64,000 nt of DNA from a bacterium (GTDB taxonomy: Bacteria > Patescibacteriota > Minisyncoccia > Phycocordibacterales > UBA9973): contig JBAXSP010000004.1 in the NCBI GenBank assembly GCA_037130655.1, forward strand, positions 337 to 64,336, given 5' to 3'. Each line of letters begins with the position of its first letter. The stretch's first letter is position 1. The position numbers were made by a program, and so were the translations under genes. Below, in pieces: positions 5,158-63,127 of this stretch. The notes below the pieces were generated by a model, which saw only the letters and a list, made by a program, of their open reading frames with translations, was not told the DNA's origin and did not search any database.

Positions 5158-5258
5158 TCAGTTGATAGTTGTTAGTTGATAGTTGTGAGAAAAACAAAAG
5201 CGTGATGGACGAAGTCCATCACGCTTTTGTTTTTTATTAGTCACTAGTTATTGAACAT
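5158..5258. repeat. Heptamer-array/terminator composite element, copy 2 (variant left arm AGTTGAT/AGTTGTT)
   Basis: Left arm tcagttgatagttgttagttgatagttgtgag. Hairpin aaaagcgtgatggacgaagtccatcacgctttt. Right arm attagtcactagttattgaacatt. Confidence 0.6.
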
Positions 5259-10544: not shown

Positions 10545-10913
10545 TTATCTGCTTACATTAAATCTTTTTGGTGCAATTGACCATGAAGGGACAAATGCGC
10601 CTGTTTCCGTGTTGTAACATGTATTGTAATCAATACTGTATCTACCTAAAATTTGTTGTCCTGCCCGAAGTGTTTTACTTGATTCAGAAACAAAAAATGG
10701 TAAGATTATAAATTTTGAACCGATCGGAGCAATGGTCATTGGTCCGTATTGAGCACCGCACGCAACCTGACTTTCAGCAGTGTTATTGAGTTGTCGAATT
10801 TTCCCACCAAAATTAAACGATGGACCGATAGCAAATGTATTTGTAGCAAAAGAAAATCCGAGCGCAACAAATACACTCAAAAATAATAACGAACGAATTT
10901 TAGAGTGACTCAT
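10545..10913 (-). CDS. Small secreted hypothetical protein
   Basis: 122 aa with a signal peptide (LLFLSVFVALGFSFATNTFA). Its start abuts the ksgA stop. Confidence 0.45.
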   Translation of the reverse strand: MSHSKIRSLLFLSVFVALGFSFATNTFAIGPSFNFGGKIRQLNNTAESQVACGAQYGPMTIAPIGSKFIILPFFVSESSKTLRAGQQILGRYSIDYNTCYNTETGAFVPSWSIAPKRFNVSR

Positions 10914-11830
10914 TACTTCAGTATACTAGAGCGCGACAAAGCCAACCACTCTTTTATGTGCAAATCTTCGGCGCGGATGTTTGAGGGAATTTTCGATTCC
11001 TCAAACATCCGCGCAATCACCTCACTTTGTATTCCACCTTCCTTCAAATTATGCGCCAATGTCTTTCGTTTGTGACCAAAACCAAGATGAATTAATTCAA
11101 AAAAAGCTTTTTCTTCTTTGGTATTCTTAAAATTACTACGAGAAATGTTTGAAATCGACAAAATAGCCGAATCAACCTTTGGTGCTGGCACAAATGAGCC
11201 TGCTTTCACAACATCGACGAGTTTTGGTTCACCAAAAGCTTTGATTGAAATAGAAAGAAGTGAACCTTTCTCGTCACGAGCAACCGCACGCTCAGCAACT
11301 TCTTTTTGCACCAAAACAACGATTTTACTTGGCTGAACCACTTCTTCGAGGAATTTCCGGACGATTGCACCTGTTATATAGTAGGGAATGTTTGCGATTA
11401 ATTTGTATGTGATTACGTCCGAAGTTTTCTCGATGGTCTGTTTTTTCAAAGGTCCTGCGGAGGCGGGTAGCCGAGCACGAGCCGATTTTTCACCAGAAAA
11501 ATACGGCGTACCTTTGAAAAAGCAGGACCATTCTAACATTGCGTTCTTAATTGGAATTTCTAATATATCTCCCTCAATAAGTAATAGTTGTTTATTTTCA
11601 AGCTCTTTCGAAAATTTTTCACGTAACAAAGGTATCAATTCACGGTCTTTTTCAATTGCCACGACTTTTGCACCAGTTTTGAGTAAACTTTCAGTCAAAA
11701 TACCGGTTCCAGGACCGATTTCAAGCACCGTATCAGTTTTTTTGAGCTCTCCGGCTTCGACAATCTGTCTGACCGCCTTTTCTGACTTCAAAAAATTCTG
11801 CCCGAGGGATTTTTTAGCTTTGTATTCCAT
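10913..11830 (-). CDS. rsmA: 16S rRNA (adenine1518-N6/adenine1519-N6)-dimethyltransferase RsmA/KsgA, carrying a ~40-aa in-frame insertion
   Basis: Diagnostic N-terminal KKSLGQNFL motif, SAM-binding LEIGPGTGILT, and NIPYYIT (the E. coli NLPYNIS equivalent). About 37-40 extra residues (AMLEWSCFFKGTPYFSGEKSARARLPASAGPLKKQTIEKTSDVIT) lie between the EGDIL and NIPY motifs. Confidence 0.9.
   Translation of the reverse strand: MEYKAKKSLGQNFLKSEKAVRQIVEAGELKKTDTVLEIGPGTGILTESLLKTGAKVVAIEKDRELIPLLREKFSKELENKQLLLIEGDILEIPIKNAMLEWSCFFKGTPYFSGEKSARARLPASAGPLKKQTIEKTSDVITYKLIANIPYYITGAIVRKFLEEVVQPSKIVVLVQKEVAERAVARDEKGSLLSISIKAFGEPKLVDVVKAGSFVPAPKVDSAILSISNISRSNFKNTKEEKAFFELIHLGFGHKRKTLAHNLKEGGIQSEVIARMFEESKIPSNIRAEDLHIKEWLALSRSSILK
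11434..11530. mobile_element. MITE-like palindromic element (TTTTTCACCAGAAAAA-core family, copy A) inserted in frame inside ksgA
   Basis: Terminal inverted repeats tggtctgttttttcaaaggtcc / ggtacctttgaaaaagcaggacca flank a core gcggaggcgggtagccgagcacgagccgaTTTTTCACCAGAAAAAta. The core is shared with the copies at 43604, 51863 and 62320. Confidence 0.55.
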
Positions 11831-17970: not shown

Positions 17971-19221
17971 ATGTGTAGAGCATCAAGAAAGCTTATTTAT
18001 ACAAAAAAACCAAAAAATGTTTCTTCCTCTCCTCGTACTACATTGAAGAAACAGTTATATCGAAACAAAAACCTGACACTTGGGACAGTGGCGTTATTTG
18101 CTATTTTTGCATACACAACAACAGACGCTACGGTGTTTGATAAAATCGCAGCCTTTTTCCAAAGCAAGCCAGTAGTCAAAAGCAATTCTCAGACAGTTGC
18201 ATTACTTGATCCACTCAACAGCACTGAGAATGCTGGTATTCCAGTCCTCTTAGAAGGAGATGATTCTCTTTCTGCCGAAACAGGACCAATGGGCACACAA
18301 GCTGATATTGAAGACTATTACCCAGCAAGTGATGAGATTCAAACATACACAACAAAAGATGGTGACACATTGAAAGGTATTGCAAAAATGTTTGACGTTA
18401 GTCCAAGTACTATTATCTGGGCAAACAACCTTGATACAAATACAAAACTAACAACCGGGCAAACATTGGTTATTCTCCCTGTTTCTGGATTACAGTATAC
18501 ACCTAAAAAAGGAGATACTGTTGGTGGGATTGCAAAACGTTTTGGTGTAGACCCTGAAGATATTACTTCTTTCAACGGCATTTCTACACTAACAACCGGC
18601 GAAGCAATCATTGTTCCAAATGGTGAAATGGAAAAACCAACACCTGTTGAGAAAAAACCAGTAAAACAAATAGCAAAAACAACTAAAGAACCGGTGATCA
18701 TCAAAAAAGGAGAAACAGTATTCGATAGAACAATTGGAAGTGTCTTTAGTCTTGCTGGTCCACAAAAAGGTGAAACTGTTGCACGCTCAAGACGTGGTGA
18801 AAAAATTTGGGGATTCAATGCACCGGCATTCAAAGATTACTATATCTTCCCGGTAGAAGGTGGAATCAAAACTCAAGATCTTCATGGATTCAATGGTATC
18901 GATATTGGATATCCTGGTAGAGCTGGTGGTGCCCCAATCAAAGCCGCAGCAGCAGGAACAGTCATTGTTGCAAAAGATACTGGGTCAAACGGAGGATACG
19001 GAAAATATGTCGTTATCGCTCACAACAATGGAACACAGACACTCTACGCCCACAACTCAAAAAATGCAGTCTCAGTTGGTGACACGGTCAAACAAGGAGA
19101 AGTAATTGCATATATGGGAAGAACAGGGAAAGCAACTGGATACCACGTACACTTTGAAATTCGCGGAGCCAAAAACCCATTTGCTACAAGTTTCAATAGT
19201 GACAATACAAGTAACGACTAA
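17971..19221 (+). CDS. LysM-domain M23-family peptidoglycan endopeptidase
   Basis: Two LysM repeats (YTTKDGDTLKGIAKMFDVSPSTIIWANNL and YTPKKGDTVGGIAKRFGVDPEDITSFNGI) and a C-terminal M23 signature (GIDIGYP...YVVIAHNNGTQTLYAHNS...GRTGKATGYHVHFEIR). The true start may be an internal Met. Confidence 0.85.
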   Translation: MCRASRKLIYTKKPKNVSSSPRTTLKKQLYRNKNLTLGTVALFAIFAYTTTDATVFDKIAAFFQSKPVVKSNSQTVALLDPLNSTENAGIPVLLEGDDSLSAETGPMGTQADIEDYYPASDEIQTYTTKDGDTLKGIAKMFDVSPSTIIWANNLDTNTKLTTGQTLVILPVSGLQYTPKKGDTVGGIAKRFGVDPEDITSFNGISTLTTGEAIIVPNGEMEKPTPVEKKPVKQIAKTTKEPVIIKKGETVFDRTIGSVFSLAGPQKGETVARSRRGEKIWGFNAPAFKDYYIFPVEGGIKTQDLHGFNGIDIGYPGRAGGAPIKAAAAGTVIVAKDTGSNGGYGKYVVIAHNNGTQTLYAHNSKNAVSVGDTVKQGEVIAYMGRTGKATGYHVHFEIRGAKNPFATSFNSDNTSND

Positions 19222-19322
19222 ATAATGACCAATTGCCAATGACTAGTGACTAAAAATCGTATGAAGACTTCGTCTTCATACGATTTTTTAATTGGTCATT
19301 AGTCATTAGACACTAGTCATTG
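19221..19322. repeat. Heptamer-array/terminator composite element, copy 3 (between convergent genes)
   Basis: taatgaccaattgccaatgactagtgacta / aaaatcgtatgaagacttcgtcttcatacgatttt / aattggtcattagtcattagacactagtcatt. Confidence 0.75.
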
Positions 19323-30654: not shown

Positions 30655-30711
30655 GACTTCCCGCACATAAGAAAAACCCTCAATATTGAGGGTTTTTCTT
30701 ATGTGCGGGAT
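30655..30711 (-). terminator. Long perfect hairpin (24-bp stem) formed by the tRNA-Gly(TCC) 3' trailer folding back onto the tRNA acceptor/T-stem 3' strand
   Basis: cccgcacataagaaaaaccctcaa-tatt-gagggtttttcttatgtgcggg. The right arm is the tRNA 3' end itself. Confidence 0.6.
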
Positions 30712-38942: not shown

Positions 38943-40229
38943 TTATGCAGTTTCTTCAACGATTTCTGCTACAGTTTCGACATCTTCTTGTGACAAACCT
39001 TCTTCTGTTGCTTCTTCAAGTGCTTCAGTAACAGCTTCACCAAGATCTGCACCACTGTTTTTCTTTTCTTCACGCTCATCTGAAGCCATAATTGTGTCGT
39101 CTACAACAATATCACCAACAGTACCTTTGATATCAATTCTCCAACCAGTAAGCTTCGCAGCGAGACGAACATTTTGTCCTCCTTTACCGATTGCAAGAGA
39201 TAGTTGATCTTCAGCAACTTCAACAGACGCTTTGTGTTCTGTTTCGTCGATTTCGATGTTCAATACTTTTGCAGGAGACAGAGAGTTTGAAATAAATTCA
39301 GCTGGACTTTCTGACCATGGAATAATATCAATCTTTTCTCCGTTTAGTTCATTTGAAACAGTTGTAACACGAACTCCGCGTCCTCCGACACACGCACCGA
39401 TAGGGTCTACTTGGTCATCATTTGAGTGTACAGCGATTTTTGAACGAGAACCTGGTTCACGAGCGATTGATTTGATTTCAACTGTTCCTGACGCAATTTC
39501 TGGTGCTTCAATTTCAAACAATGCATGCAAGAATTTAGGATGTGTACGAGAAAGTCTCAAATTTACTCCGCGAACTGATTCTTCAACAGAGAAGAGGTAT
39601 GCACGAATACGATCTCCGCGATTCCAACGTTCTCCAGGGATTTGTTCTTCAGGAGAAAGTACTCCAGTTGCACGATTGAAATCAACAAAAAGCATTCCTT
39701 TTTCTACTTTTTGGACATACCCATTCACAATTTCACCTTCTTTGTCTCCGTATTCATCAATGATTGTTGAACGTTCTGCTTCACGAATCTTTTGAATAAT
39801 CACCTGTTTAGCTGTTTGAGCAGCAACACGCCCAAAATCTGCTTTGTTTTCAAGTGGAAAAATGATTTCATCTTCCAATTCAGCATCTTTTTTGATTTTC
39901 TTCGCGTCTTCCAAGAAAATATGATGTTCTTCATTGTAACGAACACGCATATCTCCTTCTTCAAGCACTTCTTCAGCAGGTTCTTCACCTTCTGTTTCTT
40001 CAACAATACGAACAAGTGTGTCATCTACAACGATTTTTACTTGAGAAAAATCTGTTTCTCCTGTTTCCATATCAAAAGAACAACGAACGATTTGTCCTTT
40101 TTTTCCGTAATCTTTTTTGTATGCAGCAGCCAAAGATTGCTCAATAGCTTCAATTATTTTATCTTTTGGTATTTTTCGCTCTTCTTCTAGTTGAATAAGG
40201 GCGAGTTTCATTGTTTTTAAGTCAAACAT
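38943..40229 (-). CDS. nusA: Transcription termination/antitermination factor NusA
   Basis: N-terminal NusA domain, S1 and tandem KH domains, and an acidic C-terminal tail. Confidence 0.9.
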   Translation of the reverse strand: MFDLKTMKLALIQLEEERKIPKDKIIEAIEQSLAAAYKKDYGKKGQIVRCSFDMETGETDFSQVKIVVDDTLVRIVEETEGEEPAEEVLEEGDMRVRYNEEHHIFLEDAKKIKKDAELEDEIIFPLENKADFGRVAAQTAKQVIIQKIREAERSTIIDEYGDKEGEIVNGYVQKVEKGMLFVDFNRATGVLSPEEQIPGERWNRGDRIRAYLFSVEESVRGVNLRLSRTHPKFLHALFEIEAPEIASGTVEIKSIAREPGSRSKIAVHSNDDQVDPIGACVGGRGVRVTTVSNELNGEKIDIIPWSESPAEFISNSLSPAKVLNIEIDETEHKASVEVAEDQLSLAIGKGGQNVRLAAKLTGWRIDIKGTVGDIVVDDTIMASDEREEKKNSGADLGEAVTEALEEATEEGLSQEDVETVAEIVEETA

Positions 40230-40436
40230 ATTTTATTTTTATTTAATTTTGCTAATTTTTCTAAAAATAATGCCCGCTTTTGGCGGACATTACTATTAAT
40301 ATCTTTATATTACATAACAAAACAGGAAAACACAAGTCATTCACTTTTTATTTTTTATTGTTGTAATGATTTTTTATTTTTTCAAAAAAATGTAAAACAG
40401 GCTTTGTTTTGTAAGACTATTAACAACTTGTTCAGG

Positions 40437-40487
40437 TTATCCACAGGTTTTCAACATATTTTTTAGATTTTGGGGAGTTTATCCACA
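40437..40487 (+). promoter_or_regulatory. Two perfect DnaA boxes (TTATCCACA) upstream of dnaA
   Basis: ttatccaca at 40437-40445 and 40479-40487, within the AT-rich region preceding the dnaA start. Confidence 0.75.
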
Positions 40488-40503
40488 GAACATAAAAGCT
40501 ATA

Positions 40504-41856
40504 ATGTTTTTTATGCAAGACTACAAACAACTTTGGGATAGCTGTTTAATCGAAATAGAGTCAGGTCTTTCAAAAGCCAATTTTAATACTTGGTTTAAAA
40601 ATACATCAATAATCAAACAAGACGCCGGTACGGTATATATCGGAGTACCAAATGAATTCGTCAAAGAGTGGTTAGTAACAAGATTCAATAAATTGATACT
40701 AAAAACACTTATGAATTACACGGAAAATATCCGTGGAGTAGAATATACCATTGTAAAACAAGATCAAAACAAGAAAAATATCGAAAATAGTCCATCATAT
40801 CAGAACGCAACACTTCCGCTCGACGATTTATATGTGAACAAAGAGGATAATTTGAATCCTCGATATATTCTAGATACTTTTATTGTTGGATCATTCAACG
40901 AGTTGGCTTATGCTGCCTCTCAAGCAATTATCAAGGCACCAGGAAAGAGTTATAACCCGTTTTTTGTCTATGGAAATAGTGGTCTCGGAAAAACACACCT
41001 CATTGAGGCAATAGGGAACACTATTAAGAAGAATGATTCGAGTAAAAAGATTTACTATACAACACTTGAGCGTTTCTATATTGAGTGTGTAAATGCTATT
41101 CAAGCCAATAAAATCAATATTTTCAAGGAAAAATACCGAAAATTCGACGTGTTGATTATTGATGACGTCCAATTTATTACCGGAAAAACTCGTACACAAG
41201 ATGAATTGTTCCATGTTTTCAATACTTTGTATGACACAAACAAACAAATCGTGTTTTCATCTGATAAACACCCCAATTTCATTGCCGGCCTCGAAGATCG
41301 TTTGAAGTCACGCTTTTCTCAAGGGATGATCGTTGAAGTACTTGAACCAGAATATGAGTCTCGTATTGCCATTTTGAACGAAAAAGCAAAACAAATGAAT
41401 AAAAACATTAATCCTGAGGTAATTGAATATATTGCATCGGTGGTTGAAGGGAATATTCGTGAACTAGAGGGGACTTTGAACTCTATTATCTGCCAAAGTG
41501 ATCTTCGAAACCGCCCAGTAGACATCAACGAAGTCAAACAATTCCTCAAAAACGTTGTTCGTCCCAAAAAACAGGTAGCTGTCGAAGAAGTCGTCAAAAC
41601 AATTGCTGATTTCTACGGTATAGACGAGCAATCTATCTATGAAAAGACTCGTCGTAAGGAAATTGTCCACGCAAGACAGATGGTAATGTTTATTCTCCGT
41701 GAAGAATTCAGTGTCTCTTTCCCATTAATCGGTCAAAAACTAGGAGGGAAGGATCACACAACAGTGATTCACTCGTGTACAAAAATAAAATCAGAATTAT
41801 TACACAATCCAGTACTTGGTCAAGAGCTTGAAAAACTAAAAATCTTGTTCAGATAA
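40504..41856 (+). CDS. dnaA: Chromosomal replication initiator protein DnaA
   Basis: AAA+ core (GNSGLGKTHL), the sensor/box VII region, and a C-terminal DNA-binding domain (...HARQMVMFILREEF...LGGKDHTTV...). Confidence 0.95.
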   Translation: MFFMQDYKQLWDSCLIEIESGLSKANFNTWFKNTSIIKQDAGTVYIGVPNEFVKEWLVTRFNKLILKTLMNYTENIRGVEYTIVKQDQNKKNIENSPSYQNATLPLDDLYVNKEDNLNPRYILDTFIVGSFNELAYAASQAIIKAPGKSYNPFFVYGNSGLGKTHLIEAIGNTIKKNDSSKKIYYTTLERFYIECVNAIQANKINIFKEKYRKFDVLIIDDVQFITGKTRTQDELFHVFNTLYDTNKQIVFSSDKHPNFIAGLEDRLKSRFSQGMIVEVLEPEYESRIAILNEKAKQMNKNINPEVIEYIASVVEGNIRELEGTLNSIICQSDLRNRPVDINEVKQFLKNVVRPKKQVAVEEVVKTIADFYGIDEQSIYEKTRRKEIVHARQMVMFILREEFSVSFPLIGQKLGGKDHTTVIHSCTKIKSELLHNPVLGQELEKLKILFR

Positions 41857-42236
41857 TAAATAAAATTGTGGATAAACCCTGTGGATACTGTGTGTAAAAG
41901 GATAGACAAGACTGTGAATAATAAAAAGTAAAAAGTGGATAAAAACAGGTGTGTAAAAGTTATATTTTTACCCCAAAGTTACCAACAGGATATTTTGTGT
42001 ATAAGTTTTACCAAAAGAAGCTTGTGGTATATAGAAAAAGAAGGTAATTAACACTATCAACAGACCTATCATAATCATCATATAATTATATATAATATAT
42101 AATATAACTATCTTAAAAACAGAAAACACAAAGATAGTTATATTTCGTCTTCGACTCGGACGACGTAAAAGTAACAATCTTTTACTCGCTCCTCGCTTGA
42201 CGAAATAACAACGTAAAAAATAATTAAACTAACGAC
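41857..42236 (+). promoter_or_regulatory. oriC: DnaA-box cluster plus AT-rich unwinding element between dnaA and dnaN
   Basis: tgtggataa, tgtggatac, tgtgaataa, agtggataa and tgtgtataa boxes. The 42070-42115 stretch is almost pure A/T (ataattatatataatatataatataact). Confidence 0.75.
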
Positions 42237-43334
42237 ATGAAATTCGAAGCCTCAATAGAAAAAATAAAAGAAGCGATTGTAAACACTGATCGAATTGCGG
42301 GCAAGAATTTATCATTACCAGTTCTTGGAAGTATCTTAATTATCGCATCAGATAAAAAGCTCAAATTGCGTTCTACAAACCTTAGTATCGGCATAGAGGT
42401 AGATGTACCCGCAAAAGTTGAAAAAGATGGCGTAGTGGCAGTACGTGCCGAAATACTGGCAGGTTTCTTCTCTAATCTAGTCGGTGGAGGAATGGTTTCT
42501 TTTGAACAAGTTGAAAACACTATTGTTCTTAGTACAAAACAAGTCACTTCTCGTATCAAAACAATTCCACACGAAGATTTTCCAACGATTCCAGTGATTG
42601 ATGGTGAAGGAAATAAGATTAATGCTCAAAAATTCAACGAAGGATTACGTGCAGTGTATTATTCAGCAGCTGTCTCTGATATCAAGCCTGAAATCGCAAG
42701 TATTTATGTGTATAAAGATGGTGAAAAGTTGGTATTCGTTGCAACAGACTCATTCCGTCTTTCTGAAAAGAAGATTCAGCAAAGTGTTGAAAATTTTGAA
42801 TCAATGTTGATTCCATGGAAAAATGTTGTTGAAATAATGCGGTTATTGGACAGTGTACAAGGAGATTTTGTTTTGACACACACAAAGACGCAGATTGCTA
42901 TCACTGACAAAGAACAAGGATTATACCTGACTTCTCGGGTGATCGACGGAAATTTCCCAGATTATCGACTTATTTTTCCAAAAGAAGTATTGATCGAAGT
43001 GAATATTTTGAAACAAGAATTTGTGCAGTCATTGAAATTGGCAACAATTTTTTCTGATAAATTCAATCAGATCACATTGAATATCAATGCGGATACAAAC
43101 ACTTGTTCTGTTGCTTCAAAAAACAACGAAACTGGTGAGCAAGATATTGTGGTTCCATGTAAAGTAACTGGCGGAAGTATCACCGCGAGTTTCAACTACA
43201 AACACTTTATGGATTGCTTTTCTTCAGTTGGTGGTGACACGGTCAAACTATCGTTTACTCAACCACAAAAACCAGTGCTGGTGAGCGGGACAGATAATAG
43301 TTTTACTTATTTGATAATGCCACTCAACCGCTAA
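42237..43334 (+). CDS. dnaN: DNA polymerase III beta sliding clamp
   Basis: 365 aa immediately downstream of dnaA/oriC, with the three-domain architecture. Typical N-terminal MKFEASIEKIKEAI... Confidence 0.9.
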   Translation: MKFEASIEKIKEAIVNTDRIAGKNLSLPVLGSILIIASDKKLKLRSTNLSIGIEVDVPAKVEKDGVVAVRAEILAGFFSNLVGGGMVSFEQVENTIVLSTKQVTSRIKTIPHEDFPTIPVIDGEGNKINAQKFNEGLRAVYYSAAVSDIKPEIASIYVYKDGEKLVFVATDSFRLSEKKIQQSVENFESMLIPWKNVVEIMRLLDSVQGDFVLTHTKTQIAITDKEQGLYLTSRVIDGNFPDYRLIFPKEVLIEVNILKQEFVQSLKLATIFSDKFNQITLNINADTNTCSVASKNNETGEQDIVVPCKVTGGSITASFNYKHFMDCFSSVGGDTVKLSFTQPQKPVLVSGTDNSFTYLIMPLNR

Positions 43335-43603: not shown

Positions 43604-43697
43604 AGTTGTAATTTTTTAAGAACACAGATATTTTTCTGGTGAAAAATTCCTTTGCTCGCCTACCCGGCTGCGCAAGTTTCTTAAAAAATTACAACTC
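43604..43697. mobile_element. MITE-like element, TTTTTCACCAGAAAAA-core family (copy B)
   Basis: 19-bp TIR agttgtaattttttaagaa / ttcttaaaaaattacaact. The core (rc) is gcgcagccgggtaggcgagcaaaggaaTTTTTCACCAGAAAAAta. Confidence 0.55.
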
Positions 43698-44131
43698 TAA
43701 AATATTTTGAAAAAATAAAAACTTCCGAATATCGGAAGTTTTTATTATAGAAAAAAGCTCGAATCTCCAAACAATCCTTGTGTTAATAAAAAAACAAGTA
43801 GTCAGATTGCAAAGGATAGCCCCAGCAGACGGTAAACCGTAACCAAGACGTCCTCTTTAAAATAACTTGAGCGTAAGCCGATTGCTTAGAGATTTGAGCC
43901 TTCTTTTGATATACTAGAAAAAATAGTATATACCATATTTTTAACCTGAAAACAGTTTAACATATTATACTTTTTTTGTCAACTACCTTGTTATAAAATC
44001 GTTATATATCAAATAAATGTAAGGATTTTCAGATGTAGATGAAATTCGATGAAAAAATGAGTATTCGAGCGAGATGTATAAATTATACATTGAGTGAGAA
44101 ACGGAATTTTTGAAGAAGAAGTTCGCTACAT

Positions 44132-51862: not shown

Positions 51863-51955
51863 GTGTGTTTTTCAGTAGACTCTGCGCAGACTGACGAGTC
51901 GAGCAAAGTAATTTTTCACCAGAAAAATATACGTGTCTACTGAAAAACAGCACCT
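51863..51955. mobile_element. MITE-like element, TTTTTCACCAGAAAAA-core family (copy C), flanked by an 8-bp direct duplication
   Basis: TIR gtgtgtttttcagtagac / gtctactgaaaaacagcac. Core gcgcagactgacgagtcgagcaaagtaaTTTTTCACCAGAAAAAta. Flanking direct repeats gaatgaag at 51855-51862 and 51956-51963. Confidence 0.6.
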
Positions 51956-52022
51956 GAATGAAGACTTGACAAACATATTGTATTGTGATACAATCTTGTT
52001 AGAAATCAAATAATATACAAAA

Positions 52023-55889: not shown

Positions 55890-58259
55890 ATGGCAAAAAA
55901 ACTAACGGACAAAAATAAAAAGACACTCGTATTACTTGATGCTCATGCAATCATTCACCGTGCATATCACGCACTACCAGAATTTGCGACACGTGCCGGA
56001 GTTCCGACAGGCGCACTCTATGGTATCATTGCAATGGTGCTCAAAATCACCGAAGAGTTACAACCAGATTATATTGTTGCGTGTTACGATCTTCCGCAAA
56101 AAACATTTCGCCATGAAGCGTATGACGCCTACAAAGGTACTCGTGCAAAAACTGATGATGCACTCGTTTCGCAAATAATACAATCACGAGAAATTTTCGA
56201 CGCATTAAATATTCCAATGTATGATGCACCAGGTTTTGAGGCCGATGATGTGCTCGGTGCAATTGCAGAGCAAACAAAAAATGATGACACGTTGAATGTG
56301 ATCATTGCGTCAGGTGATATGGACACACTTCAATTGGTTGAAGGAAACCGTGTGCAAGTGTACACCTTGAAAAAAGGTTTGAACGATACCATTATTTATA
56401 ATGAAAAAGCGGTGGTGGAAAGATTCGGATTTTTGCCAATTCAAATTCCAGATTACAAAGGATTGCGCGGTGATACATCTGACAACATTATTGGAGTCAA
56501 AGGTATCGGAGAAAAAACTGCAACAAGTTTGATTCTTGCATATAAGACAATCGAACAACTATTTGTCGCAATTAAAAAGGACAGAGACAGTGTCAAGAAA
56601 AAAGCAAGTGTCACTGATCGCATCATTGACCTATTGATTGAAAATGAAGAAGAAGCATTGTTCTCAAAAACACTCGCAACAATTCGTCGCGATGTGCCAA
56701 TTACTTTTGTACTTCCAGAAGAATTCAAAAAAAATGCAGAACGAGAAAAATTGATTGCACTCTGTCAGAAATTTGAATTCCGAAGCTTGATTACACGTAT
56801 CGAAAAAGTTTTTGGTTTTGATCCAATCAAAGATGAAATCGAAATCAAAGGCGATGATATTTTTTTGGTGAAGAAATTGAGCATCGCAACGTCGCTACTC
56901 AATTCAGAAGACAAAGAACCAGACATCGGCGCGATTTTATTTCACACAAAAACAACAACGATTGCAGATGCAGAAAAAGTATTGATGCAAGATATCAAGA
57001 AAAATAATTTGGAATTTGTTTTTGATGTAATTGAAACTCCACTCATTCCGATTATTTCTGAGCTCGAAGAAAATGGTATTTTGATTGATGTAGAATATTT
57101 GAAAAAGTTGAGCAAAGAATATCACACAGCGCTCGATATTTTGGAAAAGAAAATTTACGAACTAACTGGTGAGACATTCAATATCAATTCACCAAAACAA
57201 CTAGCAGAAATTTTGTACGACAAGTTGGAACTTTCGGATGGAATCAAAATGAAAAAAACTGCCGGTGGTGCACGTTCAACAAAAGAATCCGAACTGCTTA
57301 AAATGAAAGACGCACATCCAGTCATTTCATTTATTCTTGAATACCGCGAATTACAAAAATTACTTTCGACCTACATCGACACCTTGCCGAGTTTGGTGAA
57401 AGAAGACGGAAGAATTCATGCACACTTTTTGCAGACAGGAACCACGACCGGACGCTTTGGTTGTGAAAATCCAAACCTGCAAAATATTCCAATCAAGACA
57501 GAATTAGGAAAACGAATTCGAAATGGTTTTGTTGCAAGCAAGGGTTGTACATTGGTTTCGTTCGACTATTCACAAATCGAACTTCGGGTAGCGGCAATGC
57601 TTGCAGGCGATACGTATATGACCGAAGCGTTTATTCGAGGTGATGACATTCACACAGCAGTGGCAATGAAAGTCTTTGGGGTAAGTGAAGCAGATATGAC
57701 TTATGATATGCGACGTCGAGCAAAAGTCATCAACTTCGGTATTCTCTATGGTATGGGGGTGACCGCACTCAAAGATGCACTAGGAACCGACCGTAAAGAA
57801 GCCCAAGCTTTCTACGACAACTATTTCTTGGCCTTTCCTTCGATTGCGGGATATTTGGAAGGAATTAAGGAATTTGCTAAAAAGCACGGATTTACGACAA
57901 CATTGTATGGACGACGACGTTATTTCCCAAATATTAAATCAAGTATCCAGTTTATCCGAGCAATGGCTGAGCGAACTGCGATCAATGCACCAATCCAAGG
58001 AACAGGGGCGGATATTATGAAATTGGGAATGATTAAGGCTCAAACAGAGCTTGCGAAGGCTGGTTTGAATGAAAAAGCCAAAATGGTGCTTCAGGTGCAC
58101 GATGAAATCATTTATGAAGTAGAACATAGTGCAGTAGAACAAGTAACGAAAATTGTTAGTAATGCGCTGGTGACAGCAATGCCGGATGAACCAAAGCCAA
58201 CAATCACAGTCCCTCTTGCTGTAGGAGTAAAACAAGGAGAAAATTGGGGTGTATTATAG
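55890..58259 (+). CDS. polA: DNA polymerase I (5'-3' exonuclease + polymerase domains; reduced 3'-5' exonuclease region)
   Basis: N-terminal 5'-nuclease (LVLLDAHAIIHRAYHAL), polymerase motifs A (DYSQIELR), B (RRRAKVINFGILYG) and C (QVHDEIIYE). 789 aa. Confidence 0.9.
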   Translation: MAKKLTDKNKKTLVLLDAHAIIHRAYHALPEFATRAGVPTGALYGIIAMVLKITEELQPDYIVACYDLPQKTFRHEAYDAYKGTRAKTDDALVSQIIQSREIFDALNIPMYDAPGFEADDVLGAIAEQTKNDDTLNVIIASGDMDTLQLVEGNRVQVYTLKKGLNDTIIYNEKAVVERFGFLPIQIPDYKGLRGDTSDNIIGVKGIGEKTATSLILAYKTIEQLFVAIKKDRDSVKKKASVTDRIIDLLIENEEEALFSKTLATIRRDVPITFVLPEEFKKNAEREKLIALCQKFEFRSLITRIEKVFGFDPIKDEIEIKGDDIFLVKKLSIATSLLNSEDKEPDIGAILFHTKTTTIADAEKVLMQDIKKNNLEFVFDVIETPLIPIISELEENGILIDVEYLKKLSKEYHTALDILEKKIYELTGETFNINSPKQLAEILYDKLELSDGIKMKKTAGGARSTKESELLKMKDAHPVISFILEYRELQKLLSTYIDTLPSLVKEDGRIHAHFLQTGTTTGRFGCENPNLQNIPIKTELGKRIRNGFVASKGCTLVSFDYSQIELRVAAMLAGDTYMTEAFIRGDDIHTAVAMKVFGVSEADMTYDMRRRAKVINFGILYGMGVTALKDALGTDRKEAQAFYDNYFLAFPSIAGYLEGIKEFAKKHGFTTTLYGRRRYFPNIKSSIQFIRAMAERTAINAPIQGTGADIMKLGMIKAQTELAKAGLNEKAKMVLQVHDEIIYEVEHSAVEQVTKIVSNALVTAMPDEPKPTITVPLAVGVKQGENWGVL

Positions 58260-58372
58260 GTTCTAGTGATTAGTTTCTAGTTGCTAGTAAAAACATAGAA
58301 AAAAGAGCGAAAACCTACGGTTTTCGCTCTTTTTTTGTTAAAACTAGAACCTAGTCACTAGCCACTAGAACC
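58258..58372. repeat. Variant heptamer-array/terminator element (CTAGT / ACTAGAA-type arms)
   Basis: ggttctagtgattagtttctagttgctagta / aaaaaagagcgaaaacctacggttttcgctcttttttt / aaaactagaacctagtcactagccactagaacc. Confidence 0.65.
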
Positions 58373-58394
58373 TATCACTTGCTATACTCTCTCT

Positions 58395-58877
58395 ATGGAA
58401 CCAACTCAGAAGAAACCAAAAAGCGTACATATCATTTTATCAGAATCATATTTGACCTTTATTGTCCTCTTTATTCCAGCAATGTTGTTGGATACTTATT
58501 TTAATACCAATAAAACCGTGCATCCAAATCTTGTTATTTTGGGTTGGGTACTACTATTTATCTCACCGGTTCTTATTTATTGGGCACAAAAAACCTCAGC
58601 TGCTTTCAAAAAAGCTTATGAAAATGGTACTCCGATTACTCCGAGCTTCTTTATGCACGGGCCATACAGGGTTACTCGTCGTCCAACTCATCTTGGTATT
58701 ACACTGATGTTTGTTGGATTTTCTCTTGTTATATCAAGTCCGTTTGCGCTAGTTTCTGCATTGATTGCACACTTGGTGACACAAATGAATTTCATTAAAC
58801 GCGAAGAATGTATTTTGCTTGAAAAATACGGCGAACCATATCAGGTTTACTGTAATAAAGTTGGCAAATGGCTATGA
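58395..58877 (+). CDS. Isoprenylcysteine carboxyl methyltransferase (ICMT/PEMT) family membrane protein
   Basis: GPYRVTRRPTHLGITLMFVGF ... EECILLEKYGEPYQVY matches the ICMT-family C-terminal signature. Four TM helices. Confidence 0.6.
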   Translation: MEPTQKKPKSVHIILSESYLTFIVLFIPAMLLDTYFNTNKTVHPNLVILGWVLLFISPVLIYWAQKTSAAFKKAYENGTPITPSFFMHGPYRVTRRPTHLGITLMFVGFSLVISSPFALVSALIAHLVTQMNFIKREECILLEKYGEPYQVYCNKVGKWL

Positions 58878-59563
58878 TGACACTGGTTGTTGGTGGTGAC
58901 TACAAAAAAAGAAGTTTATATCGAGGAAAGTTTCTCGGTGAAGATTTTGTTGTGTCATCAGCTGAAAGCATCAAAGAGGTGCTTACAGAAATAACTGCAA
59001 CATCACTTTTTGAGGAAATGAAAGGAGTGGTATTTGTAAATATATTTTCTCAGAATAAACATGAAGCAGATTGGAAGTTGATTTTAGAACAAGCTTCAGC
59101 AGGAACTCGAAAATGCATCTTCGAAGAAGAAAAAACCATTGCAGGACTTGCTCCGTTGTGCAAAAAATACAAAGTAGAAGTACTTGACCTGAAAGAAAAA
59201 GAGCAAAGTAAATATAACCCTTTTTTGATTACTGATGCATATGGTGCAGGTGATAAGAAGGAATTGTTCAGTCTTTTTATGGAATCTCTCGAACGAGGTG
59301 AGGTAGCAGAAGAAATACATGGACGAATTGCTTGGATGGCAAAAACCTTGGCAACTGTTGAATTATCATTGAAAAATAAGGACGAAAGCATTGTTTCAGA
59401 AATCAATCCCTTTGTTGTATCAAAAACCAAGCGAATATTGTCTGCACAAAAAAACCGATCTTTTATGAAAGAATATTGCGAATTGGTAAGTATGTATCAC
59501 TTGGGGCATAGAGGAGAAGGAGAAATGATGTATTTGCTTGAACGGTTTTTGTTGTCTATATAA
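58868..59563 (+). CDS. Hypothetical protein (weak resemblance to DNA polymerase III delta subunit)
   Basis: 231 aa that overlaps the upstream gene by 10 nt. No firm motif. Confidence 0.35.
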   Translation: MAMMTLVVGGDYKKRSLYRGKFLGEDFVVSSAESIKEVLTEITATSLFEEMKGVVFVNIFSQNKHEADWKLILEQASAGTRKCIFEEEKTIAGLAPLCKKYKVEVLDLKEKEQSKYNPFLITDAYGAGDKKELFSLFMESLERGEVAEEIHGRIAWMAKTLATVELSLKNKDESIVSEINPFVVSKTKRILSAQKNRSFMKEYCELVSMYHLGHRGEGEMMYLLERFLLSI

Positions 59564-59582
59564 TAAATAGAAAAATTCATAT

Positions 59583-59614
59583 AAAAAAAGCCTTCTGTGG
59601 GAGAAGGCTTTTTG
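59583..59614 (+). terminator. Intrinsic terminator after the 58868..59563 gene
   Basis: aaaaaaagccttctgtgggagaaggctttttg. Confidence 0.65.
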
Positions 59615-59820
59615 TATGGTTATATTTTATTGTAGGCTTGAAAAGCAGAAAGAACAAATGAGGTGAAAGTTGCGTAATAATTAACTTAATTATATGAAAA
59701 GGGAGCAAGTCCATTTTTTATTGGCAAGAGCCAAAAGTTTGACTGTCGCTTTCTATATGTGCCTCATCTGATATAAGTATACAAGTTTTTTATTTTGTGT
59801 GTTGTGGAAAACTTTTTAAT

Positions 59821-60017
59821 AAAACCTTTTGAAAGGCACACGATTTTTGCACTACAAAAATCGGGTCGAAAGAAAGAATATGACGAAGTCGTATACTTTT
59901 TTCGACATTTTTTCAAGGCAGAAAAAATGCCTCTTTGCTCGGAAACAACCAAAAGAAAAACACCTGTCGGTGTTTTTCTTTTGGTTGTTTCCTGTGCAGA
60001 GCCTTTCAAAAGGTTTT
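59821..60017. mobile_element. 197-bp element with perfect 17-bp terminal inverted repeats (AAAACCTTTTGAAAGGC) enclosing a 24-bp perfect hairpin
   Basis: 59821-59837 aaaaccttttgaaaggc and 60001-60017 gcctttcaaaaggtttt. The internal hairpin ggaaacaaccaaaagaaaaacacc-tgtc-ggtgtttttcttttggttgtttcc is at 59950-60001. The right TIR overlaps the dsbB-like stop codon. Confidence 0.5.
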
Positions 60018-60543
60018 ATTGAGTGATATTCTTCGAAGTTTTACAAACCAAAAGTCCGATGATTGCGATAAATATACATAGAGACATCAGTGGAATCGTG
60101 ACAAAACCGAATTCATTCACGAAGTTTTGTGTGCAAGATACCGCTGAAGAGCAGGGAATCAGTGGAGAGAGTCCAAAGTTGAGGGAATTGTGATACAAAG
60201 AGATGATTGTGCCAAAAATAGCAAGAATACTGATTGTCCATACAGAAACAATCGATTCTTTCTTCCAAAAACCAATAAATGCAAGTGGAATCATTGGAAA
60301 CAGGGCGATTCGTTGCCACCAACAAAGCGTGCAAGGAGAATAATTGTACCCCATAGAATACACGAGGCTTCCCAAACAAGCACCGCTGACAATAATACCA
60401 ATCAAAAGCAAGGCTTTTTCTTTGATAAATAAAGTGATTTTATGATTTGGTGCAAAAAAACTAAGAAAAAATACCTTTAGTCCGAAGATTCCAATAAGAA
60501 GTGCTCCAATTGCTGAAAATGTGTTGAAAGTATCTACAGACAT
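60016..60543 (-). CDS. Disulfide bond formation protein B (DsbB/BdbC family)
   Basis: Four TM helices. CTLCWWQRIALFPM matches the BdbC/DsbB CxxC-W-QR motif. A second Cys pair CSSAVSC lies in the periplasmic loop. Confidence 0.7.
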   Translation of the reverse strand: MSVDTFNTFSAIGALLIGIFGLKVFFLSFFAPNHKITLFIKEKALLLIGIIVSGACLGSLVYSMGYNYSPCTLCWWQRIALFPMIPLAFIGFWKKESIVSVWTISILAIFGTIISLYHNSLNFGLSPLIPCSSAVSCTQNFVNEFGFVTIPLMSLCIFIAIIGLLVCKTSKNITQ

Positions 60544-60546
60544 AGG

Positions 60547-61164
60547 TTATTTAGCGGTTGAAGTCGCGTTAGTTGGTGTACCTAGATCAAAACCTGTCCA
60601 TTTTGCGAGTGTTTCAGGTGGAATTTCTCCGGTAATACGTGAAAATGGTGGGATTGTATAGCTTCCATCAGCATTTTTTGCAGGTTCAACATCCATTCCG
60701 ATCGTTTCTTTTTCAAAAACCCACACTTTTGAATATGGAGAAGCTGTTTTTTCACAAATAGGGTCATTGCTTGGTGTGTTTTCTTTGTATATGTCACAGA
60801 CAGCACGAAGGTTTTCGTTGATTGTGATAGGGTTGGTGAATTTCCATGTAGGGTAACTGGCGATTTTTTCATCTTTACAGATTTGTAGTTGCCCAGAACC
60901 ATCAGCAGTTGAACATTCTACATATGGAAGGAGTTTTACACTACTACCAAAAGCTTTTTTCTGGGCTTGGCAGTGTGGACACCAAAAGGCGCCATAGAAT
61001 TTTGCTCCGACAGTTTTCAAATGCATTGCTAAAGCATCGTATTGCCCTGGTTTTGATGAGTTTGTTCCTTTGTTTGCAATAATTCCTCCTGCGATACCAA
61101 GTATAAGCACCAATCCAATAATTCCAAAAAATAATTTTGTGTTCATATAAAGACATAATACCAC
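60547..61164 (-). CDS. Membrane-anchored thioredoxin-fold thiol:disulfide oxidoreductase (DsbA-like)
   Basis: N-terminal TM. YGAFWCPHCQAQKKAFG thioredoxin CxxC motif. Adjacent to the DsbB-like gene. Confidence 0.7.
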   Translation of the reverse strand: MVLCLYMNTKLFFGIIGLVLILGIAGGIIANKGTNSSKPGQYDALAMHLKTVGAKFYGAFWCPHCQAQKKAFGSSVKLLPYVECSTADGSGQLQICKDEKIASYPTWKFTNPITINENLRAVCDIYKENTPSNDPICEKTASPYSKVWVFEKETIGMDVEPAKNADGSYTIPPFSRITGEIPPETLAKWTGFDLGTPTNATSTAK

Positions 61165-61218: not shown

Positions 61219-61947
61219 ATGTCAGTATTTCTATTCGGACTATTTGCTGGGATTATGACCTTTTTGGGTGGTTTTTCGGCATTATACTTTTCTCGCAAAT
61301 CAAAAGACACACTTCATTTGATGGTTTCAGTAACTGCTGGAGCAATCTTGGTTTTGGCAGTAATTGGGTTGCCTGGTGAGGCGATAGAATTATTGGGAAA
61401 TGTACAAGGTGCACTTATGCTGATACTAGCAGGATTTTTGCTCTATCTTGTTTTGGATAGATCTCTCGTGCTACATAGTCATTCTCATGAAGCAGGTCAT
61501 GAGCACCGAGTTGTTCATCGTTCATCGTTTCGCGCTAGTGCAATGATCGCCCATAGTTTGCTCGATGGTATTGCTATTGGCCTTGCTGCGAAAGCTGACA
61601 TAGGGCTTTTAATCCCCGTTGGAATTGCGGTGATTGCCCACGATTTTTCTGATGGATTAAATACCGTCAGTGCAGTCCTCAAAGATGGTTCACGAAGAAA
61701 AGCATTGTGGTTCTTGATTCTCGATTCGATTGTTCCAATTCTTGGAATAGTGCTTGCCTATTATGTACTCACGGTTCCAGATAAGGTGCTCGGAGGAATA
61801 CTTGCGGTTATTGCTGGATTTTTCCTGTATATCTCTGCAAGCGATATTATTCCGGAAACTTTTCATAATCACCCGAAAACATTTACGACCGTTGCGACGG
61901 TTATTGGGGTGGTGTTGATGGGGGTATTGGTGCAGTTTGTGAAATAA
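61219..61947 (+). CDS. ZIP-family divalent metal transporter
   Basis: His-rich loop HSHSHEAGHEH, HSLLDGIAIG and IAHDFSDGL motifs, with multiple TM helices. Confidence 0.8.
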   Translation: MSVFLFGLFAGIMTFLGGFSALYFSRKSKDTLHLMVSVTAGAILVLAVIGLPGEAIELLGNVQGALMLILAGFLLYLVLDRSLVLHSHSHEAGHEHRVVHRSSFRASAMIAHSLLDGIAIGLAAKADIGLLIPVGIAVIAHDFSDGLNTVSAVLKDGSRRKALWFLILDSIVPILGIVLAYYVLTVPDKVLGGILAVIAGFFLYISASDIIPETFHNHPKTFTTVATVIGVVLMGVLVQFVK

Positions 61948-61979
61948 ATAAACAAAACCAGCTATATAGCTGGTTTTGT

Positions 61980-62192
61980 TTATTTTTCTAGTGTTGTATT
62001 TCCACTAATCAGATCAAAAATTTTATTTTCTATATTGAAAAGTTCTGTCTGCATATTTTTTAATATAGTATATTTTTCTCCACTAAAATCCTCGATGTTT
62101 TTAGTTTTTAAAAATTCTTCAATATATCCATCATATTCTTCATTCAATTTTTTCCAACTTGTTTTGATTTGATCAAATTCTTCCTTTTTCAT
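61980..62192 (-). CDS. Small hypothetical protein
   Basis: 70 aa ORF preceding the repeat-rich region. Confidence 0.3.
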   Translation of the reverse strand: MKKEEFDQIKTSWKKLNEEYDGYIEEFLKTKNIEDFSGEKYTILKNMQTELFNIENKIFDLISGNTTLEK

Positions 62193-62460
62193 ACAGATAA
62201 ATTATACAGGAATCGATCACAGATTACTAAAGCTATTTGTTTCGGTGGGAATCCCTCCTTACAGGGGCAGTAAACTTACAGTTTCTGTACACCTTTTGGA
62301 TATTTTTTCATAGGAATCGATCACAAGTATTTTTCACCAGAAAAATCTCGCGACCCCGCCTCGCCTATTTTTCGGGTGAAAAATTAGGGCTCCGGCTTTC
62401 GATTCCTACACGCAAAGCAAAATTGTTTGCTTCGCTCGAGGGGACACAAAAATAAAAACT
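62193..62460. repeat. Repeat-rich region next to tRNA-Lys: a 14-bp direct repeat pair around an 86-bp insert, a double TTTTTCACCAGAAAAA / TTTTTCGGGTGAAAAA palindrome (MITE-family copy D), and an inverted, interrupted copy of the tRNA-Lys 3' end
   Basis: aggaatcgatcaca at 62204-62217 and 62304-62317. 62323-62385 tttttcaccagaaaaatctcgcgaccccgcctcgcctatttttcgggtgaaaaa. 62397-62445 ggctttcgattcctac[acgcaaagcaaaattgtttgcttcgct]cgaggggac matches the tRNA-Lys T-loop-to-acceptor sequence on the opposite strand. Confidence 0.5.
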
Positions 62461-62487
62461 GCACAAATTGTGCAGTTTTTATTTTTG

Positions 62488-62560
62488 TCCCCTCGGTAGG
62501 AATCGAACCTACGACCATCTCCTTAAAAGGGAGCTGCTCTACCGACTGAGCTACGAGGGG
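62488..62560 (-). tRNA. tRNA-Lys (anticodon TTT)
   Basis: Perfect acceptor CCCCTCG/CGAGGGG, D-arm GCTCAGTCGGTAGAGC, anticodon loop CTTTTAA, T-arm TAGGTTCGATTCCTA. An unusual C at position 1. Confidence 0.7.
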
Positions 62561-62611: not shown

Positions 62612-63115
62612 ATGAACAAAAGGTCAATAACCCAAAATGAAAAGAAGTTAATTTTAGTACTCGACAATATTCGCAGTGAACACAATACCGGTTCGCTTTT
62701 TCGTACTGCCGACGGAGCAGGGGTGAGCAAGGTTTTTCTTGTAGGCACAACACCAAAACCAATCGATCGTTTTGGGCGGCCAGTTGGCACAATTGCAAAA
62801 ACTGCTCTCGGTGCAGAGAAAACTATTCCATATGAATATTATGCAACCACCGAAGAAACAATTACTGTATTAAAAAAAGAGGGAGTACATATATATAGTC
62901 TTGAGCAAACAGCAAGTAGTGTTTCTTTGTTTGATGTTGAACCACAATTTCCGTGTGCACTTATCGTTGGTAATGAAGTTGATGGGGTAAGCAAAGAGTT
63001 TGTTGATGCAAGTGATACAGTGCTTGAAATTCCAATGAACGGTGAAAAAGAAAGTTTGAATGTGAGTGTAGCAGGCGGAATAGGATTATTTTTTCTTTTG
63101 CAAAAGAAAAAATAA
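62612..63115 (+). CDS. SpoU/TrmH-family RNA 2'-O-methyltransferase
   Basis: LVLDNIRSEHNTGSLFRTADGAGV, LIVGNEVDGVS, EIPMNGEKESLNVSVAGGIGLF are the SPOUT motifs. Confidence 0.8.
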   Translation: MNKRSITQNEKKLILVLDNIRSEHNTGSLFRTADGAGVSKVFLVGTTPKPIDRFGRPVGTIAKTALGAEKTIPYEYYATTEETITVLKKEGVHIYSLEQTASSVSLFDVEPQFPCALIVGNEVDGVSKEFVDASDTVLEIPMNGEKESLNVSVAGGIGLFFLLQKKK

Positions 63116-63127
63116 TCCTATTCCGCA

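Follow-up and report, generated by a model that had tools for sequence, protein, structure and literature searches.

A palindromic element at the dsbB stop codon of a Patescibacteriota contig: a probable enlarged member of a small repeat family

The end of a dsbB-like gene on contig JBAXSP010000004.1 (GenBank assembly GCA_037130655.1, Patescibacteriota) is covered by a long self-pairing element, which raises the question of whether this structure is a mobile element, a structured RNA or simply the terminator of the gene. The window referred to here is the whole stretch of 64,000 nucleotides that was analysed (positions 337 to 64,336 of the contig), for which a sequence-only reading had proposed that the element may be a third small mobile element type. 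Comparison with four further lineages has revealed that it occupies one and the same locus in all of them, and that it shares its motifs, in the same order, with small palindromic repeats found elsewhere in the window. The explanation favoured here, to which somewhat better than even chances are given, is that of an old, enlarged copy of this repeat family which has been fixed at the dsbB stop codon and is now most likely a terminator or 3′-end structure.

Anatomy of the element and its repeat family

The element spans 203 bp of self-pairing sequence (59818-60020) and, as had been claimed, overlaps the end of the dsbB-like gene, whose TAA stop codon (60018-60016) lies inside the 60001-60020 arm. 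A repeat search of the window has defined its ends as a perfect inverted repeat with arms of 20 nt at 59818-59837 and 60001-60020 (100% complementary), with AATAAAACCTTTTGAAAGGC at the former position and its complement at the latter. The perfect terminal inverted repeat (TIR) of 17 bp described earlier is present, its true length being 20 bp, with three more nucleotides on each side. Four hairpins are enclosed by this repeat, hp1 to hp4, and two of them correspond to the structures of the sequence-only reading, namely the perfect 24-bp hairpin with a 4-nt loop (hp4) and the cgatttttg hairpin (the 9-bp hp1). The features are given below in minus-strand order, where compact copies denotes the shorter family members described further on, and L002, L131, L135 and L139 are the four further lineages.

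60001-60020, minus strand: 5′ arm of the closing helix P1, AATAAAACCTTTTGAAAGGC, which includes the last base of the final dsbB codon and the TAA (60016-60018); from the repeat search and the list of open reading frames (ORFs), present in all five lineage variants.
59993-59998, minus strand: 5′ strand UGC of helix P2a (59998-59996) with the internal-loop ACA, forming the family motif UCUGCACAG; from alignment with the compact copies.
59941-59992, no strand assigned: hp4, equivalent to P2b, a hairpin of 24 perfect pairs whose loop has 4 nt and whose 3′ arm is rich in U (arms 59941-59964 and 59969-59992, 100% complementary); from the repeat search.
59933-59940, minus strand: GA internal loop, 3′ strand GCA of P2a and junction AAG, forming the family motif CGAGCAAAG; from alignment.
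59906-59929, no strand assigned: hp3, CATTTTTTC-TGCCTT-GAAAAAATG in minus-strand reading (arms 59906-59914 and 59921-59929), the A/U hairpin P3 of the family; from the repeat search.
59865-59906, no strand assigned: hp2, an imperfect hairpin of 41-42 nt (GTCGAAA...TTTCGAC) absent from the compact copies and from L139; from the repeat search and folds.
59841-59863, no strand assigned: hp1, CGATTTTTG-TAGTG-CAAAAATCG in minus-strand reading, 9 bp, followed by UGUG, a second A/U hairpin module; from the repeat search.
59818-59837, minus strand: 3′ arm of P1, GCCTTTCAAAAGGTTTTATT, found in the window, L002 and L139, with unrelated sequence in its place in L135 and the L131 type.

A stretch of 221 nt containing the element folds as one closed multi-branch structure on either strand, with energies of -106 kcal/mol on the plus strand (z = -15.8) and -99 kcal/mol on the minus strand (z = -14.7), and none of 200 dinucleotide shuffles folded as well. 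Exact matches to the 24-mer of hp4 in the window are limited to its own two arms, none being expected by chance. AT/TA dinucleotides occur at both ends of the element, and no direct repeat (target-site duplication) was detected in the sequence flanking 59818-60020. Since independent public assemblies contain it as well, the element is no assembly artefact. The two opposite-strand ORFs sharing the peptide ETTKRKTP(V/T)GVFLLVVS, which had been ascribed to the palindrome, are indeed in the ORF list; they are mirror by-products of the long palindrome and annotation artefacts, one of them being annotated as a 106-aa gene in a public assembly. A small protein gene was considered and rejected, given a 61-nt indel between the L139 and window alleles and the mirror-image nature of the ORFs. 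When the translation running through the element was used as a query against proteins, only the orthologous spurious ORF of L002 was returned. At the gathering threshold, Rfam identified tRNAs only in the whole window, with the sub-threshold matches in the element and one compact copy corresponding to a generic (miRNA-like) hairpin.

A blastn search with the L131-type sequence has led to three further places in the window. Together with the L131 allele itself, these make up the four compact copies from which alone a covariance model, R1, was built; a fifth, diverged copy has also been recognised.

11441-11522, plus strand: compact copy in frame inside ksgA (ORF 10913-11830, minus strand), R1 83.2 bits.
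43604-43696, minus strand: compact copy, R1 94.8 bits, absent at the orthologous site in L141 and L142.
51868-51947, plus strand: compact copy upstream of the promoter of gene 52023, R1 87.8 bits, with no copy in the orthologous intergenic region of L141 and L143.
L131 5347-5436: compact copy in the L131 allele (B-type), from alignment.
About 62311-62409: fifth copy, diverged or rearranged, closed by a 10-bp repeat (TAGGAATCGA/TCGATTCCTA) and having two A/U hairpins, also at L131 3200-3264 and L002 5-68, next to tRNA-Lys and conserved in sister lineages.

The compact copies are 80-93 nt long and are closed by arms of 12-19 bp, the sequence of which differs from copy to copy; three of these closing repeats are perfectly complementary, while the fourth contains one G.T (wobble) pair. 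The family core of about 55 nt can be written as Y-C-UGC-RSA, a 3-bp stem with a 5-6-nt loop, and GA-GCA-AAG, followed by the A/U hairpin AUUUUUC-ACCA-GAAAAAU, ..GUG and the 3′ arm. Covariation has been observed in P2a (UGC/GCA versus UAC/GUA), in P2b (GCC/GGC, GAC/GUC and GGC/GCC) and at the apical pair of P3 (C-G versus G-C), and the loop motifs are conserved (ACCA, as well as GGGTA/GTGTA, containing GTAG in three of the four compact copies).

The dsbB element follows this plan. Read on the minus strand, it presents in family order an arm, UCUGCACAG, hp4, CGAGCAAAG, hp3, hp2, hp1, UGUG and a second arm, that is, a closing repeat flanking the core, the ordered YCUGCRSAG, stem-loop and CGAGCAAAG, and an A/U hairpin followed by ..GUG. 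The motif UCUGCACAG is identical or near-identical in the compact copies (UCUGCGCAG and similar), the 9-mer CGAGCAAAG recurs unchanged in copies 51868-51947 and 43604-43696, and hp4 stands where the compact copies have a 3-bp GC stem-loop. The A/U arms are CAUUUUUUC/GAAAAAAUG in hp3 and CGAUUUUUG/CAAAAAUCG in hp1, the latter being followed by UGUG and having the P3 of the L131 B-type copy as its closest match. The orthologous L139 allele, which with its one A/U hairpin has the canonical architecture of the family, is matched by R1 over the full model length (34.4 bits, E 2.5e-7), against a background in which the best match in 748 kb of unrelated genomes reached 17.4 bits. The earlier suggestion that the arms are related to the TTTTTTCAAAGG TIRs of a small family has proved a correct lead, for this is one and the same family. 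A third mobile element type is contradicted by the occurrence of the same locus in five lineages, the lack of other arm copies in the collections searched and of a target-site duplication, and membership in the small family. Judged by its sequence motifs, the dsbB element is an expanded member of this family and not a separate third type.

Searches with the arms have been less productive. Exact matches to the 17-mer within the window are confined to the two arms, and the search there yielded no further terminal repeat. The 20-mer arm produced a single chance match among JGI metagenome contigs, in an unrelated coding region; queries of IMG/VR by arm, core and A/U hairpin produced chance matches only, and a distant blastn search against phages and plasmids returned no family match. 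When the 17-mer was compared with species-representative genomes, all of the at least 120 stretches listed were unrelated single chance matches, a result that is uninformative either way, and an apparent two-arm locus among the matches listed (L081) was rejected as coding sequence. The further TIR copies that had been anticipated were thus found neither in the window nor in IMG/VR or the JGI metagenomes. It had been reasoned that a lack of other copies would reduce the element to a plain extended terminator; this was too simple a test, since the core recurs elsewhere even though the arms are unique.

The family behaves like selfish palindromic DNA of the kind of the Rickettsia palindromic elements (RPE) or of the MITEs, the miniature transposable elements with inverted repeats. 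Copy 43604-43696 is missing in two sister lineages and is flanked in the window by an A-rich direct repeat of about 9 nt; this A-rich repeat is all that resembles the target-site duplication to be checked for at other copies, and none is seen at the dsbB element. The stretch that holds copy 51868-51947 is lacking in the orthologous intergenic region of sister lineages, and the copy stands upstream of a TTGACA-17-TACAAT promoter, outside a transcript. The orientation of the copies with respect to neighbouring genes is inconsistent, the ksgA copy being antisense relative to the core orientation. It was also considered that the core had been inserted into pre-existing palindromic terminators, an option which was rejected as the empty site of copy 43604-43696 is without arms and the ksgA copy brings its own.

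Additional observations have been made around these copies. KsgA/RsmA contains an in-frame insertion of about 35 residues (window 11429-11533, residues 100-134) which is encoded by the family copy, with the frame kept open; these residues have no counterpart in the solved structures 6ifs and 7v2l, which align on both sides. The only other ksgA contig, L147, encodes the same 305-aa KsgA and comes from the same sample as L001. The promoter mentioned above, a near-consensus site of the sigma-70 type at 51966-51994 upstream of gene 52023, is conserved in L141 and L143, and standard promoter scans are therefore meaningful for this organism; across 59400-60200, no promoter-like site scored 9/12 or higher. 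Between an 85-aa gene and ruvB, a region of about 230 nt (~43752-43980) shows ~93% identity to L141 and L142 without matching any Rfam family, making it a further candidate for an unannotated RNA or regulatory region. A second repeat type, consisting of long imperfect inverted repeats rich in CTAGT/TAGTCA, occurs at 375-486, 19207-19317 and 58256-58375; the copy located between polA and a PEMT gene encloses a terminator hairpin and shows 93% conservation in L002. The sign of the GC skew switches at ~40000-42000, beside dnaN (42237-43334), with dnaA upstream in L142, and the replication origin is probably located there. A role of the dsbB element as a site of the replication origin or terminus was rejected in view of this skew switch at ~40-42 kb by dnaN.

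One locus in five lineages

Orthologous loci were reached via cluster members of two flanking proteins, which led to contigs from the lineages L002, L131, L135 and L139; with that of the window, five variants were aligned. All five represent one locus, although the flanking genes differ by 10-17% in nucleotides among the five lineages, and no empty site at the dsbB locus occurs among them. In L139, a NUDIX gene with its upstream region (L139 1130-1724) has been inserted into the 3′ end of dsbB, which truncates the DsbB C-terminus and parts the gene from the element. This lineage was for a time a candidate for a second genomic context and was rejected as such, being a case of a NUDIX cassette in the dsbB 3′ end at the same locus. 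Taking into account the shared locus and the high identity of the element where present, it is old, fixed in place and not freely drifting, and is no recent insertion.

Three parts have been kept in all five variants: the dsbB-proximal arm, the following ~15 nt (TCTGCRCAGGA..) and a hairpin. In four of the variants this hairpin is hp4, always perfect over its 24 bp (all pairs kept, 100%); changes on both sides affect five pairs (five in L135, two in L139) and no pair is broken. The L131-type variant has a classical hairpin with a GC core and a T run at the hp4 position. Other modules have been lost in some lineages: hp2 and hp1 in L139, hp3 and hp2 in the L131 type, and the 3′ arm in both L135 and the L131 type. 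The hairpin hp3 is the sole A/U hairpin of the L139 allele and is degraded in L002 and L135. Where present, hp1 to hp3 are 88-96% identical between lineages, compared with only 61-68% at synonymous third positions; short unconstrained spacers are 50-74% identical.

In the L131-type allele the locus holds a canonical compact copy, and this allele has recombined with an A-type allele, as seen in L135, where an A-type left part is joined to an L131-type right part. A recombination mosaic extends over the wider region (L002, L131, L135 and L139 compared with window 58395-61164), with breakpoints in or beside the element. L002 and L131 are 100% identical from the conserved intergenic block through half of the gene for the 231-aa protein, and only 83-88% identical in dsbB.

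The gene end and rival explanations

The favoured reading, that of an old repeat copy taken into use at the end of dsbB, would involve several steps. The bidirectional terminator of dsbB would have arisen by expansion of the internal stem of the repeat, or would have replaced this stem, and a second A/U hairpin module would have been added by duplication (hp3 and hp1), with the extra hairpin hp2 between the two. The 5′ arm and hp4 would act as a bidirectional intrinsic terminator and 3′-end structure of dsbB, which would insulate this gene from the conserved block and the convergent gene, and the remaining modules would be repeat-derived and reshuffled by deletion and recombination between alleles. 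The hairpin hp4, which starts 24 nt after the TAA and has the 3′ arm GGUGUUUUUCUUUUGG.., is a candidate bidirectional intrinsic terminator. Since the 5′ arm and a terminator-like hairpin alone have been kept in all variants, and hp4 is in the style of the gene-end palindromes of this genome, repeat DNA appears to have been co-opted as a terminator. There is no G.U pair among 96 hp4 pairs, and the wobble-compatible changes elsewhere in the element are split about evenly between the strands, with no G.U versus A.C strand bias. Considering also that both strands fold equally well, this looks like the upkeep of a DNA palindrome and not like selection on the RNA of one strand.

The features flanking the element, all on the dsbB side or towards the convergent gene, are as follows.

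60016-60543, minus strand: dsbB-like gene, Pfam DsbB (PF02600), its 3′ end capped by the element.
59621-59817, minus strand: conserved intergenic block adjoining the element, outside the repeat; from the lineage alignment.
59583-59614, no strand assigned: bidirectional intrinsic terminator of the gene for the 231-aa protein (58868-59563), with compensatory changes between lineages in three pairs; from the repeat search.

The nearest named DsbB relatives are those of Paceibacteria-type metagenome-assembled genomes, at ~40% identity. As stated in the sequence-only reading, the element is a structure additional to the conventional terminator at 59583-59614, which was recovered by the repeat search. 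A consensus terminator scanner reported no match in 59400-60200, missing this terminator as well, probably because the T run is taken up into the stem by A/T pairs. Gene ends with perfect palindromes of 18-26 bp, having an A-rich 5′ arm and a T-rich 3′ arm, are common across the window (for example 63075-63126, 61946-61985, 30659-30710, 5190-5234 and 62446-62488), several of these having a loop of zero length or extending over the stop codon. The conserved block is 79-100% identical among lineages over 59621-59800, where the minus-strand fold contains a GAUGAGG/CCUCAUU stem with one compensatory pair and G.U pairs that are workable on the minus strand only; it is preceded by a weak CAGACA-17-TATACT-like promoter and followed by the bidirectional terminator (59614-59583). 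This block (59621-59817) may represent a minus-strand small RNA of ~190 nt or a regulatory region. The 231-aa protein (58868-59563) has no homologue beyond its own 90% cluster among 5.8 billion proteins, and no Pfam domain.

A number of observations weigh against the favoured reading. The window allele itself scores only 15.5 bits with R1 (E 0.18), a low value due to the 66-nt insertion of hp2 and hp1, so that its place in the family is suggested by the shared motifs together with the orthologous L139 allele. The family counts only 4-5 copies in 64 kb, with no mobilising enzyme identified there, and the combination of copy-specific closing repeats with a conserved core is the pattern of a structured RNA, unlike that of TIRs bound by a transposase. 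The GC core of hp4, at 4 bp, is short for the terminator role proposed. The conservation of hp1 to hp3 goes beyond the needs of a plain terminator, and could reflect function, recent recombination or concerted evolution.

Several of these points would be accommodated if the family, the dsbB element included, consisted of functional structured RNAs with a three-way junction, a conserved core and a closing helix free to covary, such as signals for regulation or processing, targets of RNase III or undescribed small ribozymes, the dsbB copy acting in the dsbB 3′ untranslated region or as a small RNA. This explanation is considered unlikely, though still a live rival. Conservation is seen in the core, whereas the P1 arms show no sequence relationship and are nonetheless perfectly complementary; P2a, P2b (including the 24-bp form) and the apical pair of P3 covary; three G.U pairs in P1 (w11480, L002, L139) fit the core orientation only; the element is conserved well above the neutral level; and the core orientation at this locus is the sense strand of dsbB. 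It is opposed by the ksgA copy and copy 43604-43696, both antisense to local genes, by copy 51868-51947, which lies upstream of a promoter, by the outcome of the promoter scan in 59400-60200, by the dispensability of modules, even P1, in some lineages, by the hp2 apex, which favours the opposite strand, by the lack of G.U pairs in hp4 and by the lack of an Rfam match. A further proposal, improbable on present evidence, is that the core is a recognition structure at the DNA level, a hairpin or cruciform in single-stranded DNA used by a recombinase, an HUH-type enzyme or another DNA-binding protein through which the elements would be propagated or kept, with the dsbB copy as a resident site. The helices are perfect Watson-Crick palindromes on both strands without strand bias, the copies are polymorphic for presence or absence, loop motifs are conserved (ACCA, and GTAG in three of the four compact copies) and half-site-like A/U palindromes occur three times in the element. 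Nevertheless, no candidate enzyme gene was identified in the 64 kb and the short related contigs that were read, the copy number is low, no defined cleavage or target motifs are seen, and such a structure is here indistinguishable from passive selfish DNA. Readings of the core as a retron, attC site, k-turn, hammerhead or other ribozyme were rejected, as their defining motifs or contexts are absent from the family sequences.

That the element is a plain, elaborate terminator between convergent genes, with only a coincidental likeness to the family, is disfavoured and held to be very unlikely. Its unique arms, its position directly after the stop codon and the wealth of long palindromic terminators in this genome would fit such a view, which is however at odds with the ordered family motifs (UCUGCRCAG, stem-loop, exact CGAGCAAAG, A/U hairpin, GUG and closing repeat), with the R1 match to the L139 allele (E 2.5e-7) and with an L131-type allele in which a canonical compact copy stands at this locus and has recombined with the A-type (L135). 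A third, independent MITE type, recently transposed into the dsbB 3′ end, has hardly any credit left. The TIRs are perfect over 20 bp, the size is small and AT/TA dinucleotides are found at both ends, but the locus is shared by five lineages whose flanking genes are 10-17% divergent, without an empty site, no second copy of the terminal repeat occurs in the collections searched, the left arm persists in alleles without the right arm, no clear target duplication is seen, and the arms are not common to the family copies, unlike transposase binding sites. A bolder proposal, which is regarded as doubtful, is that the family constitutes an undescribed structured nucleic-acid element of Patescibacteria-like bacteria, whose three-way-junction core of ~55 nt would spread across the genome together with a fast-covarying, always perfect closing helix and be tolerated even within the ksgA frame, acting either as RNA (a ribozyme, a processing signal or a retro-mobile element) or as the substrate of a single-strand DNA enzyme, and that the dsbB copy is a constrained, expanded derivative of it.

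Relation to known palindromic repeats

The present case indicates that also very small and streamlined genomes of the Candidate Phyla Radiation (CPR) type carry a palindromic repeat family, one that enters both intergenic DNA and, in frame, a housekeeping gene. Repeats of this family recombine between strains, and can be expanded and kept as gene-end structures. For annotation, it is of use that the 35 extra residues of KsgA stem from a repeat insertion. It is unusual for MITE-like repeats that a core is conserved while the stems, though perfectly paired, differ from copy to copy.

The RPE are small palindromic repeats located in intergenic regions and in frame inside genes (PMC10969869). The present family is similarly scattered through a reduced genome, in intergenic positions and in frame in the housekeeping gene ksgA, to which it has added ~35 residues without destroying the gene. 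It differs in that no sequence relation to them is known and the host belongs to another phylum, and its copies are shorter (80-93 nt), few in number and provided with copy-specific closing stems; the dsbB copy is moreover intergenic. In Streptococcus pneumoniae, SPRITE mimics a rho-independent terminator, and SPRITE, BOX and RUP elements cluster and insert into one another (PMC10969869). The gain and loss of modules and the mosaic of A-type and B-type alleles at the dsbB locus are reminiscent of these modular small repeats, although sequences and host are unrelated and the terminator-like hairpin at dsbB is an expanded internal stem. The pneumococcal elements are also high-copy. Correia elements (NEMIS) of Neisseria are co-transcribed with their neighbours, and the duplexes formed by their TIRs are cut by RNase III (PMC10969869). 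They resemble the dsbB element in their inverted-repeat ends and their size of 100-200 bp, and by analogy the perfect duplexes of 20 bp and 24 bp found here would be similar substrates of RNase III. Between Correia copies the TIRs are conserved, with TA duplications on their flanks, whereas the arms of the present family are copy-specific and the dsbB locus shows no duplication.

Repetitive extragenic palindromes (REPs) are single hairpins of 20-40 nt carrying GTAG or CGTC as a terminal tag; their copies number in the hundreds. Like these and the bacterial interspersed mosaic elements (BIMEs), the family consists of extragenic palindromes arranged as mosaics, for which roles in termination or mRNA stabilisation have been proposed, and GTAG occurs in the P2 loop region of three of the four compact copies. 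Here, however, the unit forms a three-way junction 80-203 nt in length, the GTAG lies internally and is not shared by all copies, and only 4-5 copies occur in 64 kb; to our knowledge, there is no REP-associated tyrosine transposase (RAYT) for this family. The dsbB element also resembles a bidirectional intrinsic terminator, with hp4 placed 24 nt after the stop codon and having an A-rich 5′ arm and a U-rich 3′ arm, and departs from one in that the GC core is limited to 4 bp and the hairpin is embedded in a larger closed structure. Taken together, these comparisons place the family among the small palindromic repeats of the RPE, MITE or SPRITE type, a known kind, of which the dsbB element represents a new, expanded variant in a poorly sampled bacterium, probably of the CPR.

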